Shown: piece by piece, positions 1,093 to 63,735 of the stretch
Numbering within the stretch: the stretch's first letter is position 1
Layout of the letters: the number at the start of each line of letters is the position of its first letter
Assembly: GCA_964016885.1 (NCBI GenBank)
Contig: OZ024757.1
Span: forward strand, 41,602,001 to 41,666,000
Direction of reading: 5' to 3'
From: Eledone cirrhosa
Taxonomy: Eukaryota
DNA length: 64,000 nt
Position numbers and translations under genes: made by a program
Notes under the pieces: model-generated
What the model saw: only the letters and a program-made list of their open reading frames with translations
What the model was told of the DNA's origin: nothing
Database searches by the model: none

Positions 1093-1560
1093 TACAATAT
1101 TAAATAAATGGAAAACTATATTTATAAAACCATATCTATTTCATTATATATATTTCGGGGATATCATATTAACAATATGTTATGCCTTCATCAGACAAAA
1201 TACAATATAAACAGTTTTATAGATAAATATATTCGACATACCGTAATAAACATCAACTTCATTTGAAGAGGTTTACTCTAGCAGAGTACACTGCTAGAGT
1301 AAACCTCTTCAAATGAAGTTGATGTTTATTACGGTATGTCGAATATATTTATCTATAAAACTGTTTATATTGTATTTTGTCTGATGAAGGCATAACATAT
1401 TGTTAATATGATATCCCCGAAATATATATAATGAAATAGATATGGTTTTATAAATATAGTTTTCCATTTATTTAATATTGTAAATATACTCCAAATATTT
1501 GTCGAGTGCTTTTATATCAGTTATAAATATTTACTAGTTGTAACCCAACAATTTTAAATA
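1093..1560 (+). mobile_element. Foldback Penelope-like/HHR element, family A: 192-bp inverted arms (1093-1284 / 1291-1482) plus unpaired 3' tail
   Basis: Arms read as exact reverse complements around the loop AGTACA; contains an HHR motif; flanked by (TA)n; homologous to 61763-61965. Confidence 0.8.
1371..1440 (+). ncRNA. Minimal type I hammerhead ribozyme (family A)
   Basis: TGTATTTTGT-CTGATGA-AGGC ATAACATATT GTT AATATGATAT CCCC-GAAA-TATATA-TA-ATGAAATAGA; stem I pairs with GU wobbles; palindromic stem III. Confidence 0.72.
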
Positions 1561-1933
1561 TAACTTTACATATATATATATATATATATTGCATACACAG
1601 ACGCACATATATATACATAGATAACCACTCACAAACACATATATATACGTGCATTTGTGTGTGTGTGTGAGTGTATGCATATATATTAATATATATATAT
1701 TATATATATTAATATATATACACATACACACATTGATGCATGTGCATTTGCACACACACACACACACACTGACACATATATTGAATCGATCGACAAGATC
1801 ACTTTTTGTCACATATATATATATATGTATGTATATATATGTGTGTGTATGTGTGTGTGTGTGTGTTTGTGTGGGTGTGTGTGTGTGTATATATATATAT
1901 ATACATGGATATATAGAGAGTGTCCCCAAAAAA

Positions 1934-1985
1934 GGCCTTCCTGATGATTTCTTTTGAATGAAACAGTTCTGGTCCTGTAGAAGCC
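1934..1985 (+). ncRNA. Type I hammerhead ribozyme with complete stem III, GUA cleavage triplet
   Basis: GGCCTTC-CTGATGA-T TTC TTTT GAA T-GAAA-CAG TTCTGGTC CTG-TA-GAAGCC; lies in a ~170-bp island between (TA)n tracts. Confidence 0.7.
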
Positions 1986-2989
1986 ATTTCTATATTAAAC
2001 CTTATATTTACACACTACAAATCTATTGAGTACCTTACTTAGTGTGGTTACCCCCCGACTGAACAGGGGATAAACTTATACATATATGTTATATTCTATT
2101 TGTCAGTGCAGTCTTCTCATAGTTTCTTTTCAATTCTTCTTTGCCCTCCATTACATAAAACATCTCTCTAGTTCTGACATTGATGTTCAGACACTTCATA
2201 TAAATAACACAGTATATATATATATATATACTGTGTATTTGTTTGTGTATATATATGTGTGTGTGCATATGTATGTATATGTGTGTATAAATCTCTGTGT
2301 GTGTATATATATGTATATGTGTGTGTATATAGTGTATGTTTGTGTATATATGTGTGTGTGTATATAGTGTATGTTTATGTATATATGTGTGTGTGTATGT
2401 ATATGGGGATGTTTATTTATGAGTATGTGTATGTATATATGTATGTGTATATATGTATGTATGTATGTATATATATATGTGTATATATATATATGTATGT
2501 ATATATGTATATAACTATATATATATGTGTGTGTGTGTACATATATGTGTATAACAATTCTCTCACTGCTGATCTTCTTTCTCTACCTTAGGTCAGTTTC
2601 CATGTCTTCTCTCTCTCTTTCTCTCCATCACTCCCCCTCTCTTTCTCAACCTCTTCCCCCTCTCTCGGTCTCTCATGCCTCTCTATAACTACTCCCTCTG
2701 TCTCTCAGCCTCCCTCCGTCTCTTTCTCAACTTTCTCTCTCCCTCGGTCTCTCACTCCCTCTCTCTATCACACCCCCTCTCTCAGCTGCCTCCTCTCTCT
2801 CTCTCTCAACCTCTCCCTCTCAGTCTCTCCAATCTCTAAACTATAAGACAGACAGAAACCTGTTCCATCTTCACCGTTCCATAGCATTAACACTTGAAAG
2901 ATATCGATATAAATAAATTTATGAGACAATATGGTTTTAGTTGTATATATATATATATATATATATATATATATATATATATATATATA

Positions 2990-3420
2990 TAAGGTTATAT
3001 GAATATATAAATATATATGATATATATGTATATATAATAAACATACAGAAATGTAGATATGAGTGTGTATATATATATGTATATATATATATATATATAT
3101 ATATATATATTCATATAAGGTTATATGAATATATAAATATGATATATATGTATATATAATAAACATACGGAAATGTAGATATGAGTGTGTATATATATAT
3201 GTATATATATATATATATATATATTCATATAAGGTTATATCAATATATAAATATGATATATATGTATATATAATAAACATACGGAAATGTAGATATGAGT
3301 GTGTATATATATATGTATATATATATATATATATATATTCATATAAGGTTATATCAATATATAAATATGATATATATGTATATATAATAAACATACGGAA
3401 ATGTAGATATGAATGTGTGT
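2990..3420. repeat. ~118-bp tandem repeat, about 3.6 copies
   Basis: Recurring ATAAGGTTATAT...AAACATACGGAAATGTAGATATGAGTGTG unit. Confidence 0.85.
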
Positions 3421-3673
3421 ATATATATATATTTTTCATATATGCATGCATACAATGTTATATGAATATATATCTATATATATATATATATGAAAATGAT
3501 AATAATGATGAGCAATACAGTATATATATATATATATATATATATATATATATATATATATATATATACTGTATTGCTCATCATTATTATCATATTCATA
3601 TATATATATATAGATATATATTCATATAAAATTGTATGCATGCATATATGAAAAATATATATATATACACACA
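3414..3673. repeat. Palindrome centred on a (TA)n tract
   Basis: GATAATAATGATGAGCAATACAG vs CTGTATTGCTCATCATTATTATC; TTTTTCATATATGCATGCATACAA vs TTGTATGCATGCATATATGAAAAA. Confidence 0.85.
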
Positions 3674-4578
3674 CACACATATATACACTCGCTTGAGCAA
3701 TAAAGAGTCTTTTGCAGTAACATTTTTTTTTTTACATTTTGTAAGCCTAGAACAGAATAAATTCCCAAAAGTAATTAGAAAAAATAACAACAACAACTTG
3801 TAACAACAACAACAGCAGTAGCAACAACAGCAACAACTACAACAGTAACAAAATAATCATCTGAAGCTATTAATGTCTTTTAAGAGTGTGAAAAACTGAA
3901 GCAGAACAAGATAAATGTCCTTCGTATCTGTCAAAAGAGGTTTTTTTTCAAAGGAAAATATTAGGAATACTTCCTTAACCACCCCTACCCTACCCCATCC
4001 CACCAACCCACCTACCCACCCCTACCCATCTTTTAGTATTGTTAACAAATCATTTGATTTGTACAGTTGGACTGTAATCAAAAATGTTTCCCTTTCTGTG
4101 TTCGTTTGTTTGTATTTTGTGTTTGTTTGTCTGTTTGGTTGGTTGTTGGTTGTGTGTTTTTTTTTATTATATTTTTTATTTTTTGTTTTTTTGTTTTATT
4201 TATTTATCTTCCATTTGTTTTTTTGGGGGGGGGTTGACATTTTTTTCTTTATTTATCTTCCATTTTTCTATTTTTTCCCTTTTTTGTTTACTCTTTTTTT
4301 TGTATTTTTTGTATTTCTTTTGTTTTTTTTGTATTTTTTTGTATTTTTTTGTATTTTTTTGTATATTTTTTGTATTTCTTTCTTTACCATTCCTGCCAGC
4401 CTCTGCCATTTTTAAGCTGGGTTTAGATTTCCTATTTCTGTTATATTCCTATCTCCGTTGTGTCTGTCTTTTGTCTAGTTTCCTTTGATTGTATGGTAAT
4501 AGACTTAGCTATTTTGTTTTGTTAGTCAAATGTATACTTTGTGACATCCGTAGCTGGCCTTTGGCTATCTTGACACTT

Positions 4579-62185: not shown

Positions 62186-62230
62186 TATATATATATATAT
62201 ATATATATATATATATATATATATATATGT

Positions 62231-63250
62231 ATAACAGAGGAGTTTAAGACTGGCTGTCCATGGGAACTTCTCTATGCTGACGATCTGGCTCTTATGGCAG
62301 AATCAGTAGAGGAGCTAGAGAATAAATTCCGGCTATGGAAACAGCAGTTGGAAGCAAGAGGACTGAGAGTAAATCTAGCTAAGACAAAAGTGTTGATGAG
62401 TAGAAAAGAGGACAAAACCCTGATTCCGTCAGGGAAATGGCCATGTTCGATATGCAGAAAAGGAACTGGCATAAATTCTATAAAATGCACACAATGTAGG
62501 TCCTGGGTACACAAGAGATGTAGCGGGATAGCAGGCAAACTAACAGGTAGGGAGAAATATGTATGCAGTAGATGTACAGGGAAGTTAGACAGTAGAAGTC
62601 GCACTGATAGACACATTTTTCAAATGCGAGAGGGCGCTATAGAAGTGGTGGATAGCTTCCGGTACCTAGGAGATCAGATTAGCATGGGAGGAGGGTGTTC
62701 CGAGGCCATAGTATCTAGAATAAGGACGGGTTGGAAGAAGTTTAGGGAGCTGCTTCCTCTGTTGACGAAGAAGGGTTTCTCCCTGCGTACGAAAGGCCGG
62801 TTGTATGATGCCTGTGTGAGGAGCGCGATGCTGCATGGTAGTGAGACATGGGCAGCTACCGCAGAAGATATGCGACGGCTGGAGAGAAATGAGGCAAGCA
62901 TGCTCCGTTGGATGTGCAGTGTAAATGTGCGTGAACGACCCAGCATAAATGTGTTGAGAGAGAAACTGTGTCTGAGAGGGATAGAATGTAGTGTACGGGA
63001 GAGGAGACTGAGGTGGTATGGACATGTGATGCGCATGGAGGATGACCGATGGGTGAAGAAGTGCCAGGAAATGCCAGTTGAAGGAAGACGTGGTAGAGGT
63101 AGACCACGAAAAACATGGGCGGAGGTGGTGAGAACAGACCTCAGATCATTGAAGCTCACGGTGGAGATGACGAGGGACCGTGACGAGTGGAGAGATGCTG
63201 TGCTGAATAAGACCCGTCCCACCCTTGCAAGCAGGGAAAAGCGGACGTAA
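62231..63250 (+). CDS. 5'-truncated RTE-clade LINE ORF: C-terminal reverse transcriptase with an inserted PHD-like zinc finger
   Basis: ELLYADDL RT motif, GLRVNLAKTKV, CxxC..CxxC..HxxC..CxxC, FRYLGD, LHGSETW, RLRWYGHVMR, GRGRPRKTW; no stops in ~340 codons; (TGA)n tail to 63277. Confidence 0.92.
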   Translation: MTEEFKTGCPWELLYADDLALMAESVEELENKFRLWKQQLEARGLRVNLAKTKVLMSRKEDKTLIPSGKWPCSICRKGTGINSIKCTQCRSWVHKRCSGIAGKLTGREKYVCSRCTGKLDSRSRTDRHIFQMREGAIEVVDSFRYLGDQISMGGGCSEAIVSRIRTGWKKFRELLPLLTKKGFSLRTKGRLYDACVRSAMLHGSETWAATAEDMRRLERNEASMLRWMCSVNVRERPSINVLREKLCLRGIECSVRERRLRWYGHVMRMEDDRWVKKCQEMPVEGRRGRGRPRKTWAEVVRTDLRSLKLTVEMTRDRDEWRDAVLNKTRPTLASREKRT

Positions 63251-63346
63251 AATGATGATGATGATGATGATGATGATATCCAGCAGGTGTAACGTGAAGT
63301 TACTGTAAGTTCACCCAGGTGAGCACTCCATCATTACAACAGCAGA

Positions 63347-63431
63347 GGTCTAACAAGCTTTTGATTCCAGAGTCGGGCCAGATCGTTACTGATCGAACCT
63401 TTAGCTGATCAATAGCGAAATGCGCATCACC
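63347..63431 (+). ncRNA. Degenerate family N hammerhead (core CTAACAA)
   Basis: GGT-CTAACAA-GCT T TTGA TTCCAGAG...AGCTGA TCAA T AGC-GAAA-TGCGCA-TC-ACC. Confidence 0.6.
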
Positions 63432-63502
63432 AATCAATAAACATAATGAAGGCTTAACAAATCATTCTTGTATTATTATATATATATCTATATATATGAT
63501 AT

Positions 63503-63735
63503 ATATTTAGTTAGAGAGTAAACAACAAAATATATAACTACTTCATTACCAATGTTAACATACGTCTAGTTGACTCATCAGACAGAGGGGTCACCCCTCT
63601 GTCTAGAGTCCTGAAACTTTTGGTAATGGAGTAGTTACATATTGTGTTGTTCACTCTCTAATTAGATAACTCTGTTTTATACATAGAGCGCTCTTTTTTC
63701 CTTTGCTTTTTCTTCGGAAATACTTAACATACTAT
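63503..63735 (+). mobile_element. Diverged foldback element with HHR remnant and tail
   Basis: Inverted arms centred on AGACAGAGGGG-TCA-CCCCTCTGTCT; TCATCAG (reverse complement CTGATGA) at 63575; tail AACTCTG...TAGAGCGCTCT. Confidence 0.6.

Follow-up and report, generated by a model that had tools for sequence, protein, structure and literature searches.

Penelope-like elements (PLEs) of the Hydra clade carry a C-terminal endonuclease (Craig et al. 2021, PMC8557442), and both the choice of template and start site by PLEs and their one-tailed inverted copies have been described as an open question (PMC8557442, PMC11167929). In the Poseidon element PAc of Anolis, the reverse transcriptase (RT) was found in vitro to initiate internally, at one site on either side of the tail; both strands of the target are cut and extended, and RNA about 55 nt 3′ of the start is needed (Frangieh et al. 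2024, PMC11167929). Two small RNA elements are also relevant: the arginine sandwich motif of HIV-1 TAR and 7SK SL1, where the TAR layout gives U23.A27-U38 with A22 as the base (Pham et al. 2018, PMC6189040), and the 3′ stem-loop of the eel LINE UnaL2, a small conserved hairpin with an internal loop that is needed in cis for retrotransposition (PMC1636434). Our comparisons draw on portions of these reports.

The DNA analysed here, referred to as the window, is a 64,000-nt stretch of the Eledone cirrhosa genome (assembly GCA_964016885.1, contig OZ024757.1, positions 41,602,001 to 41,666,000). An earlier note had observed that the tails of insertions in this window contain ACTC followed by GAGT(G/A/T)CT. 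The motif is a bulged hairpin, RYUC-Y...R-UH-GARY-NCU, with a 2-nt U-bulge and an inner stem. The following copies and carrier insertions were located in the window.

1094..1570 (+): fold-back insertion of family A; the short arm stops at 1094, 7 nt ahead of where the hairpin would begin, and the long arm contains hairpin 1, a hammerhead core at about 1381 and a tail of 60 nt
1488..1510 (+): hairpin 1 of family A; the bulge is UC and the inner stem has 3 bp
2028..2034 (+): decayed copy of family F6 with the 3′ half of hairpin 1
5490..5538 (+): hairpin 1 of a Hydra family, GCTC/GAGC variant; overlooked in the earlier note
8964..8970 (-): 3′ half of the motif only
9952..10035 (-): hairpin 1 with a 61-nt loop, family F3, which is the autonomous Hydra element Hy1
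11484..11684 (+): F3/Hy1 copy stopping at the short site, 7 nt 5′ of hairpin 1
11711..12011 (+): family C fold-back; hairpin 1 at 11910-11937
18920..18943 (+): hairpin 1 of family F9, GCTC/GAGC variant; also overlooked
19050..19206 (+): family F16; hairpin 1 spans 19164-19206 with a single mismatch here, and a type I hammerhead has its core at 19050
31069..31466 (+): fold-back of family C with its short end at 31069 (-8) and its long end near 31457; it carries a minus-strand hammerhead (31161), a plus-strand one (31268) and hairpin 1 (31368-31397)
33161..33223 (-): hairpin 1 of family F26, 5′ half mutated in this copy
49545..49777 (-): family C-like fold-back; short end 49777 (-8), long arm truncated within hairpin 1, whose 3′ half is 49625-49631
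58108..58313 (-): fold-back of family E with its short end at 58313 (-8) and its long end at 58108; hairpin 1 spans 58154-58180; the full-length Hydra unit of this family is L277
63322..63328 (-): junction-adjacent 3′ half of hairpin 1, from the family of the Hydra-type ORF in L081
63669..63692 (+): F9-like hairpin 1, outermost pair mismatched in this copy

Six full motifs occur in the window, compared with none in each of 100 local shuffles. The sequence reported earlier is indeed present at 1488-1510, 11910-11937, 19164-19206 and 31368-31397 on the plus strand and at 58154-58180 and 33161-33216 on the minus strand. Other positions needed amendment: the copy placed at 9953 has a longer spacer (9952-10035); the one placed at 63666-63693 is a hairpin that reads GAGCGCT instead of carrying GAGT; at 33160 the motif exists, but the ACTC assigned to it is not its 5′ half, which is mutated and lies 7 nt further 5′; and the copies at 49625 and 63321 retain no more than their 3′ half, which adjoins a fold-back junction. 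The weaker site at 2025 stands as a decayed copy, whereas 32180-32312 is not the motif, being situated 5′ of both sites at which copies of its family end. Proximity to the (TA)n junction also stands, the tails of 37-73 nt in the window spanning a little more than the 50-80 nt given before; the tails of the copies at 19164 and 63322 run to (CAT)n. Neither the 2-nt U-bulge and inner stem nor the second hairpin described below had been recognised in the earlier note.

Throughout a genome sample of 118 segments of 10 kb, (TA)4 lies 40-89 nt downstream of 27% of GAGTRCT occurrences (n = 220) and of 2-6% of those of six control patterns. The reverse complement of GAGTRCT scores 16% in the same test, likely because GAGTACTC is almost palindromic. 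In an Rfam scan of the window, the best 150 of 584 matches were all sub-threshold, microsatellite-driven miRNA models; a repeat search of the window was dominated by (TA)n. A descriptor allowing any outer stem returned mostly microsatellite folds plus two unrelated repeats and was set aside, and candidates FAM4, 11, 12, 15, 17, 18, 20, 22, 24, 25 and 27-29 did not enter the analysis, some of them for low complexity.

The suggestion that ACTC and GAGT close an RNA stem of variable length is supported by covariation in both parts of the helix. The outer stem appears as ACTC/GAGT, GCTC/GAGC, GTTC/GAAC and TCTC/GAGA, the inner stem covaries between families, and the loop ranges from about 3 to 100 nt. 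At a bulge of 2 nt, at least three inner pairs form in 42 of 60 copies selected without regard to pairing, versus 3, 0, 4 and 6 at bulges of 0, 1, 3 and 4 nt; among copies without a tail the figure is 4 of 68. Tested per family, 12 of 44 pair at the 2-nt bulge, as opposed to 4, 0, 1 and 0 in the other registers, and the first bulge base is U in all 12 families that pass. In 37 distinct hairpins of metagenome relatives, the first inner pair is always Watson-Crick (27 C-G, 10 U-A), compared with 0, 0, 5 and 14 in other registers, and a purine in a Watson-Crick pair always precedes the bulge (the U and GAG being part of the selection); 64 of 74 cells are paired, the shuffled mean being 45 and the maximum 55. 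At inner positions 2-4, G-T pairs outnumber A-C pairs by 7 to 2, which leans weakly towards the sense strand. Taken alone, the hairpins are weak: seven window copies have folding energies between -3 and -9 kcal/mol and z between -0.2 and -3.0. In the computed folds three window copies favour an unbulged register and one fails to form the hairpin.

As judged from sequence, two near-identical bulged hairpins precede the gene in most of the intact Hydra elements examined. The tandem unit runs ORF, 3′ UTR, hammerhead, S, hairpin 1, L, hairpin 2 and ATG, where S and L are the short and long ends of genomic copies. Full-length elements with both hairpins before the ATG were found for seven families of E. 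cirrhosa. The second hairpin follows the long end in Hy1 (-7/-8), Hy5 (-6) and Hy2 (-6), and in four further families it was predicted before it was found: in family C, where 11 of 12 loci continue into a Hydra ORF and 9 of these 11 have an intact 3′ half that the search pattern did not require; in family E (4 of 5 loci examined), where the two hairpins can also cross-pair; and, in read-through copies, in F16 (63 matches) and family A (155 matches). Reversed-pattern controls gave no matches. Family F6 was searched without a second hairpin being found, and three read-through copies of F7 showed no clean one. Among metagenome 5′ regions, 20 of 30 have two 3′ halves 54-71 nt apart and 12-42 nt before the ATG, and 13 of 30 pass the full descriptor (0.27 after shuffling, maximum 2; antisense 0); the remaining 10 have fewer than two 3′ halves, and several of them appear by eye to be truncated or interrupted. 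In sequences from the PMC8557442 supplement, the coral Hydra-2_Amil and sea-cucumber Hydra-2_Ajap carry the hairpin at their 3′ ends and the sea-cucumber Hydra-1_Ajap carries both at its 5′ end; the hairpins of the sea-louse Hydra-1_Crog are deviant, without the U bulge, and none is evident at the published ends of Hydra-1_Obim.

The carriers had been described as unrelated, and the motif as common to all families. Neither view is supported: every motif family traced to an ORF is, by its motifs and by-eye likeness to the alignment in the PMC8557442 supplement, a Hydra-clade PLE. Open frames of 784 aa (family E), 830 aa (F3/Hy1) and 680-719 aa (Hy5) read, by motif, as an RT followed by a C-terminal GIY-YIG endonuclease in one ORF; those of family C were observed in pieces, and for families A, F6, F16 and F26 no ORF was obtained. 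In the same genome, the ends of hammerhead-bearing PLEs, presumably Nematis-like, and of one further family, presumably Neptune-like (names that we assign from domain layouts), lack the hairpin; the Nematis-like ends share another motif. The long RT frame at 62027-63250, which we take to be an RTE-type LINE, was rejected as the carrier. Among 122 aligned proteins, DK[TS] (DKG to DKT) is present in 121, a CxCx(4-6)C linker in 117, a CxxC-before-GIY pattern in none and a strict N-terminal R-W-K/R pattern in 85, Hy1 being missed with RVRWR; C-terminal CxxC and CxH occur in all four own-genome proteins. Predicted hammerheads were found in C and F16; a core is visible in A, in F3 and in 28 of 46 metagenome 3′ regions, and family E has a similar fold with a deviant core. 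The motif families prefer (TA)n for insertion, and their tandem units measure 3.5 kb (E) and 6.4-6.9 kb (Hy1), above the tendency of Hydra elements to stay below 3 kb. A sequence search for relatives of solved structure yielded none, no RNA holder is listed for Hy1, no relatives were found in viral contigs, and single-sequence fold prediction gave no usable model (pLDDT 32). The genome also holds a young Hydra family with many identical open frames.

Genomic copies end at S or L against (TA)n, mostly 6-8 nt 5′ of the respective hairpin. The observation that inverted arms stop a few nucleotides before ACTC applies broadly: 55 of 81 short ends fall at -6 to -8 and 26 outside, with clustering in ten or more families whose flanks are unrelated in sequence; the F16 long end is at about -10. 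Where families were inspected, the sequence at both S and L is UA-rich. Of 67 fold-backs, 53 join a long to a short end, one joins two long ends, none joins two short ends, and 13 have an unclassified end. A comparison of arm lengths, made to look for a single shared RNA template, gave no consistent order (18 equal, 10 with the short arm further, 8 with the long arm further).

We consider it probable that the folded hairpins dock the element's RT and set the start of copying. The motif behaves like an RT recognition site, one of the earlier proposals. A tandem, read-through transcript would load two RT-endonuclease molecules, one on each hairpin, and their GIY-YIG domains would cleave both (TA)n strands. 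Each 3′-OH would anneal to the UA-rich stretch immediately 5′ of one hairpin and be extended, the RT initiating internally; the two cDNAs would join head to head or be continued until a complete copy results. On this view the PLE "tail" would correspond to the interval separating the two starts, which would account for its containing hairpin 1 but never hairpin 2. As to the protein, the most basic 12-residue window of the 122 aligned sequences lies before W491, with R485 and R487 each kept in 112. The U of the UH bulge may form a U.A-U triple as in TAR and 7SK, read by the conserved RxR before WFNPP, which is quite possible if short of probable; the basic stretch could also be a nuclear localisation signal. 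The most specific proposal, that a pair of TAR-like arginine-sandwich hairpins act as rulers, so that on one transcript two RTs start about 7 nt upstream and both break ends are primed concertedly, is tentative and on balance somewhat doubtful.

Several other explanations can be weighed against docking. The hairpins might be RNA 3′-processing or termination signals, the transcript being cut 6-8 nt upstream and the RT priming at the free RNA 3′ end, as the RTs of LINEs do. A downstream cleavage signal would fit the fixed distance, and the lack of hairpin 2 in long ends, equally well. However, independent cuts, given 135 long and 99 short ends, predict that about half of the fold-backs should be of the same type, and only 1 of 54 classified is; moreover, a Poseidon-clade PLE starts internally in vitro, although Poseidon RNA-seq read ends also coincide with the start sites (PMC11167929). 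We regard this explanation as unlikely.

The UA-rich bases at S and L in the inspected families would also suit a looser arrangement in which starts follow from microhomology to (TA)n and the hairpins serve mainly translation control or cis-preferential packaging, as might the end of hairpin 2 only 12-42 nt before the first ATG. Yet UA-rich stretches are ubiquitous in these UTRs and the ends nevertheless cluster at -6 to -8; we regard this arrangement as distinctly unlikely. Finally, the motif could work as DNA, as an endonuclease or promoter site or as a cruciform, at the donor or at an integration intermediate. Both copies lie just 5′ of the ATG, in the region where PLE promoters are described, and the Drosophila virilis Penelope endonuclease, as recounted in PMC11167929, needed the tail for plasmid cutting. 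Against this, a double-stranded site does not sit well with an obligatory bulge of 2 nt, an inner stem that covaries and loops ranging from about 3 to 100 nt, the excess of G-T over A-C pairs leans weakly to the sense strand, and action as DNA appears very unlikely. A promoter or DNA site of fixed spacing fits poorly, given that range of loop lengths and the covarying inner stem, and an Inr/DPE reading was rejected because the spacing is variable.

Docking of the RT by the hairpin pair would explain the PLE "tail". A search of the text of openly accessible papers returned no account of the motif. A small, duplicated, covarying RNA element in coral, sea cucumber, E. cirrhosa and marine metagenomes leads to an exact start-site hypothesis, for which a minimal construct would combine the hairpin pair, about 7 nt of spacer, (TA)n as target and a young intact family. 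PLE RTs are the sister group of telomerase, and an RNA element that positions the template would therefore bear on the origin of telomerase-type template recognition. For curators, the hairpins mark where Hydra elements truly end, and they could serve to program the insertion of foreign RNA. If they are indeed rulers, this would define how RNA encodes template positioning in a telomerase sister enzyme and provide a programmable two-ended insertion system.

With the Hydra clade of PMC8557442, the elements share a single ORF, DKT, YRDD, the CxCx5C linker, a C-terminal GIY-YIG without CCHH, (TA)n targets, tandem and inverted insertions, a one-sided tail and, in some families, a predicted pseudo-LTR hammerhead. 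They differ in their units of 3.5-7 kb versus less than 3 kb (a tendency only) and in tails of about 60-160 nt versus 30-40 nt, and the portions of that report considered here name no cis-acting hairpin. PAc similarly has two discrete starts bounding the tail, a 3′ RNA requirement and an AT-rich target, a likeness in which the PAc steps were shown in vitro, the Hydra steps are proposed from sequence, and the dimer is a prediction for PAc (PMC11167929). The PAc starts, however, lie inside the ORF, with an AC-rich stem-loop and, as far as described there, no conserved positioning element, and by eye the motif is absent from the RNA stretch in Fig. S1 of that report; Hydra elements instead have two repeated, covarying 5′ UTR hairpins, each at a near-fixed distance behind a start. 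The layout of paired purine, bulged pyrimidine, G-C pair and A-U pair is common to TAR and 7SK (PMC6189040), and the predicted Hydra hairpins have the sequence features of an arginine sandwich, namely a bulged pyrimidine immediately preceded by a paired base, with a suitable n+2 stem pair; in Hydra elements, though, the helix is closed at the opposite side of the bulge, by a loop of variable length, and the putative partner is a retroelement RT. Whereas the single UnaL2 hairpin forms part of the copied 3′ tail and precedes the priming site (PMC1636434), those of Hydra elements are located downstream of the start that they mark and come in pairs.

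The host genome of the window comprises 3.0 Gb and is rich in (TA)n, and the sites named in the earlier note correspond to the 3′ ends of short insertions, often fold-backs with two inverted arms, flanked by (TA)n tracts. Several of the short insertions carrying the ACTC...GAGTRCT motif in the window contain a type I hammerhead. Such an arrangement is familiar from Penelope-like elements (PLE), which insert as partial tandems with an inverted 5′-truncated copy and a one-sided tail, as described in two reports (PMC8557442; PMC3846280). The motif was confirmed at most of the positions reported previously, and the window contains six full motifs, compared to none in 100 local shuffles. 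Its proposed association with downstream (TA)n was also upheld: in a sample of 118 stretches of 10 kb spread across the genome, (TA)4 follows 27% of 220 GAGTRCT at 40–89 nt, compared to 2–6% for six control patterns. An intact hammerhead core is located ≤260 nt upstream of 16 out of 69 GAGTRCT sites with downstream (TA)n, in all 16 cases at −120 to −162. Many of the other GAGTRCT sites either are cut short before the core, are copies of family E, whose core is deviant, or are matches by chance. The fold of family E (window 58190–58313; L277:55–135) is a hammerhead-like three-way structure with a core departing from CUGANGA.

The suggestion that ACTC and GAGT close an RNA stem is supported by complementary, covarying halves. 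The sequence between the halves is family-specific, and its ends can pair if the two bases preceding GAGT stay unpaired, yielding a hairpin with an inner and an outer stem separated by a 2-nt bulge. When copies from the genome sample were scored without requiring pairing for inclusion, at least three inner pairs with the 2-nt bulge were found in 42 of 60 tail-bearing copies, compared to 3, 0, 4, and 6 with other bulge sizes and to 4 of 68 sites without a tail. The bulge is TT, TA, or TC in 75 out of 93 copies. Counting each repeat family once, 12 of 44 groups pass the pairing test (4, 0, 1, and 0 in other registers), all 12 with U as the first bulge base; the remaining 32 include unrelated repeats admitted by the loose filter as well as some genuine families in which the inner stem is short or mismatched. 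Covariation is also seen in the outer stem, as ACTC/GAGT, GCTC/GAGC, and GTTC/GAAC. Computed folding of the hairpins is weak and in some cases prefers the unbulged register; the bulged form thus rests on covariation, and may need a protein.

Genomic copies stop against (TA)n at two sites, a long end (L) ~37–90 nt past the hairpin and, immediately upstream of the hairpin, a short end (S). Among the copy ends counted, 81 were S, 76 L, and 5 other, with 71 further alignment ends lacking adjoining (TA)n; the S ends cluster at −6 to −8 from the hairpin (55 of 81), positions being blurred by TA microhomology. The two ends are combined in a regular manner: 67 fold-backs without inner (TA)6 comprise 53 L+S pairs, a single L+L, no S+S, and 13 with an "other" end, of which five resemble L+S mis-scored through a variant reference and most others represent short AT-rich matches. 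In fold-backs of family E, both arms usually end 56–70 nt upstream of the hairpin, near the base of stem II. A different fold-back family (window 31513–32332) also has a long and a short end, without this hairpin, and further fold-back inserts, themselves perfect, are found between (TA)n tracts at 30566–31017 and 55760–56003.

Tandem arrays of the Hydra-type element Hy1 have the order ORF, ~3.7 kb UTR, hammerhead, S, hairpin, L, ~150 nt, ATG, and end at S or L. Reading beyond L uncovered a further motif copy, hairpin 2, 6–8 nt past L in full-length Hy1, Hy5, and Hy2. Hairpin 2 was then predicted for other families, and the prediction was borne out for families C and E. For family C, a pattern requiring the 5′ half alone produced 24 matches; a Hydra ORF lies downstream in 11 of 12 loci examined, 9 of which retain an intact 3′ half. 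Family E yielded 462 matches, hairpin 2 being seen in four of five loci examined, whereas the fifth stops inside it. Two-half patterns gave 63 matches for F16 (61 of a single read-through type; L at ~−10) and 155 for family A (L at −8 in the type to which the window copy corresponds), and reversed-pattern controls for both gave none. No hairpin 2 was found for F6 in the search past L, a clean one is absent in three F7 copies, and one F10 copy contains a decayed version. In the five families with both hairpins readable, the triplet after GARY is identical in the two.

The earlier note considered the motif common to all families, which was not borne out. PLE ORFs in the genome sample are of three kinds, and the Nematis-like and Neptune-like PLEs of this genome end without the hairpin. 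The Nematis-like elements do possess a hammerhead, but their 3′ motif is a different one; two of their families have in common a conserved 3′ end motif with an optional ~50-nt extension before (TA)n, which represents a second, clade-specific tail signal lacking a bulged hairpin of the Hydra type:

Window 34819–35580 and loci L138, L142, L090, L053, L044, L074, L035, L105, and L097: Nematis-like end motif

The hairpin is likewise absent from the ends of a young Neptune-like family (L155–L194) with a 784-aa frame, in which no hammerhead core was seen within ~1.2 kb of the stop. Hairpin ends traceable upstream lead to Hydra-type ORFs, namely, those of C, F3 (identical to Hy1), Hy5, Hy2 plus two more, and E; families A, F6, F16, and F26 carry the hairpin but stand outside this tracing. 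For Hy5, the ORF was reached in 9 of 25 loci within the 1.5 kb examined. Several Hydra-type ORFs lack a hairpin within 2.6 kb, owing to longer UTRs, a copy that stops at the short site, or an interruption of the copy. Judging by sequence, the carrier proteins fit the Hydra clade on the motif criteria given in PMC8557442.

Hy1 (L245–L260) and family E (L277) are very young, with dozens of identical open frames genome-wide and head-to-tail arrays of 6.4–6.9 kb and 3.5 kb, respectively; the 3′ UTR of Hy1 spans 3.5–4 kb and is microsatellite-rich. Throughout the window, different PLE families are inserted in one another's (TA)n flanks, forming dense clusters. The window also contains a tandem array with a ~45-nt unit (47470–48477) and, at 62027–63250, an RT fragment of an RTE-type LINE that includes a PHD-like cysteine stretch and ends in (CAT)n, facing a Hydra-type tail head to head.

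Of 8000 sequences scored against a family E protein, 2214 are relatives at E ≤ 1e-20. Of 77 metagenome loci, 64 were analysed, with sufficient 5′ flank in 30 and 3′ flank in 46. The full descriptor was found in 13 of the 30 5′ regions (0.27 in shuffles, 0 on the antisense strand), with the 2-nt bulge only, and 20 of the 30 contain two 3′ halves 54–71 nt apart, ending 12–42 nt before the ATG. The base pair before the bulge is Watson-Crick pyrimidine-purine in 37 of 37 distinct metagenome hairpins, although the loci may contain related elements and the pairing cells are not independent events. By eye, in the PMC8557442 supplement, the hairpin is present at the end of Hydra-2_Amil and Hydra-2_Ajap, and both hairpins at the start of Hydra-1_Ajap; Hydra-1_Crog deviates from the pattern, and the hairpin is not evident in the ends of Hydra-1_Obim or the 3′ end of Hydra-1_Amil, which seemingly stops at S. 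Locus L304 has both hairpins, and its hammerhead and flanks read identically to the Penelope-1_NV row of the supplementary table.

PLEs and their tail are already known. In the literature searched, as far as its available text extends (including 10.64898/2026.07.22.740005, PMC11167929, PMC8557442, PMC3846280, PMC4209133, PMC6189040, and PMC13282606), we found no description of the hairpin, of its occurrence in two copies, or of the distance rule. We judge the hairpin to be a new cis-acting RNA element in a known retroelement clade, which opens the priming mechanism of Hydra PLEs to direct testing. Its anatomy, covariation, distances, and the L+S rule are established at the sequence level. Each hairpin would dock one RT, with the active site placed ~7 nt upstream, such that both ends of a (TA)n break could be primed in one event. 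For a Poseidon PLE, PMC11167929 describes cutting and extension of both target strands, internal starts at two sites bounding the tail, a requirement for RNA 3′ of the start, and a predicted dimer. The bulge shares its layout with the arginine sandwich known from TAR and 7SK (PMC6189040). Two arginines conserved in 112 of 122 sequences belong to the most basic window among the aligned proteins, which precedes WFNPP; as a lead, this stretch might read the bulge as a putative arginine sandwich.
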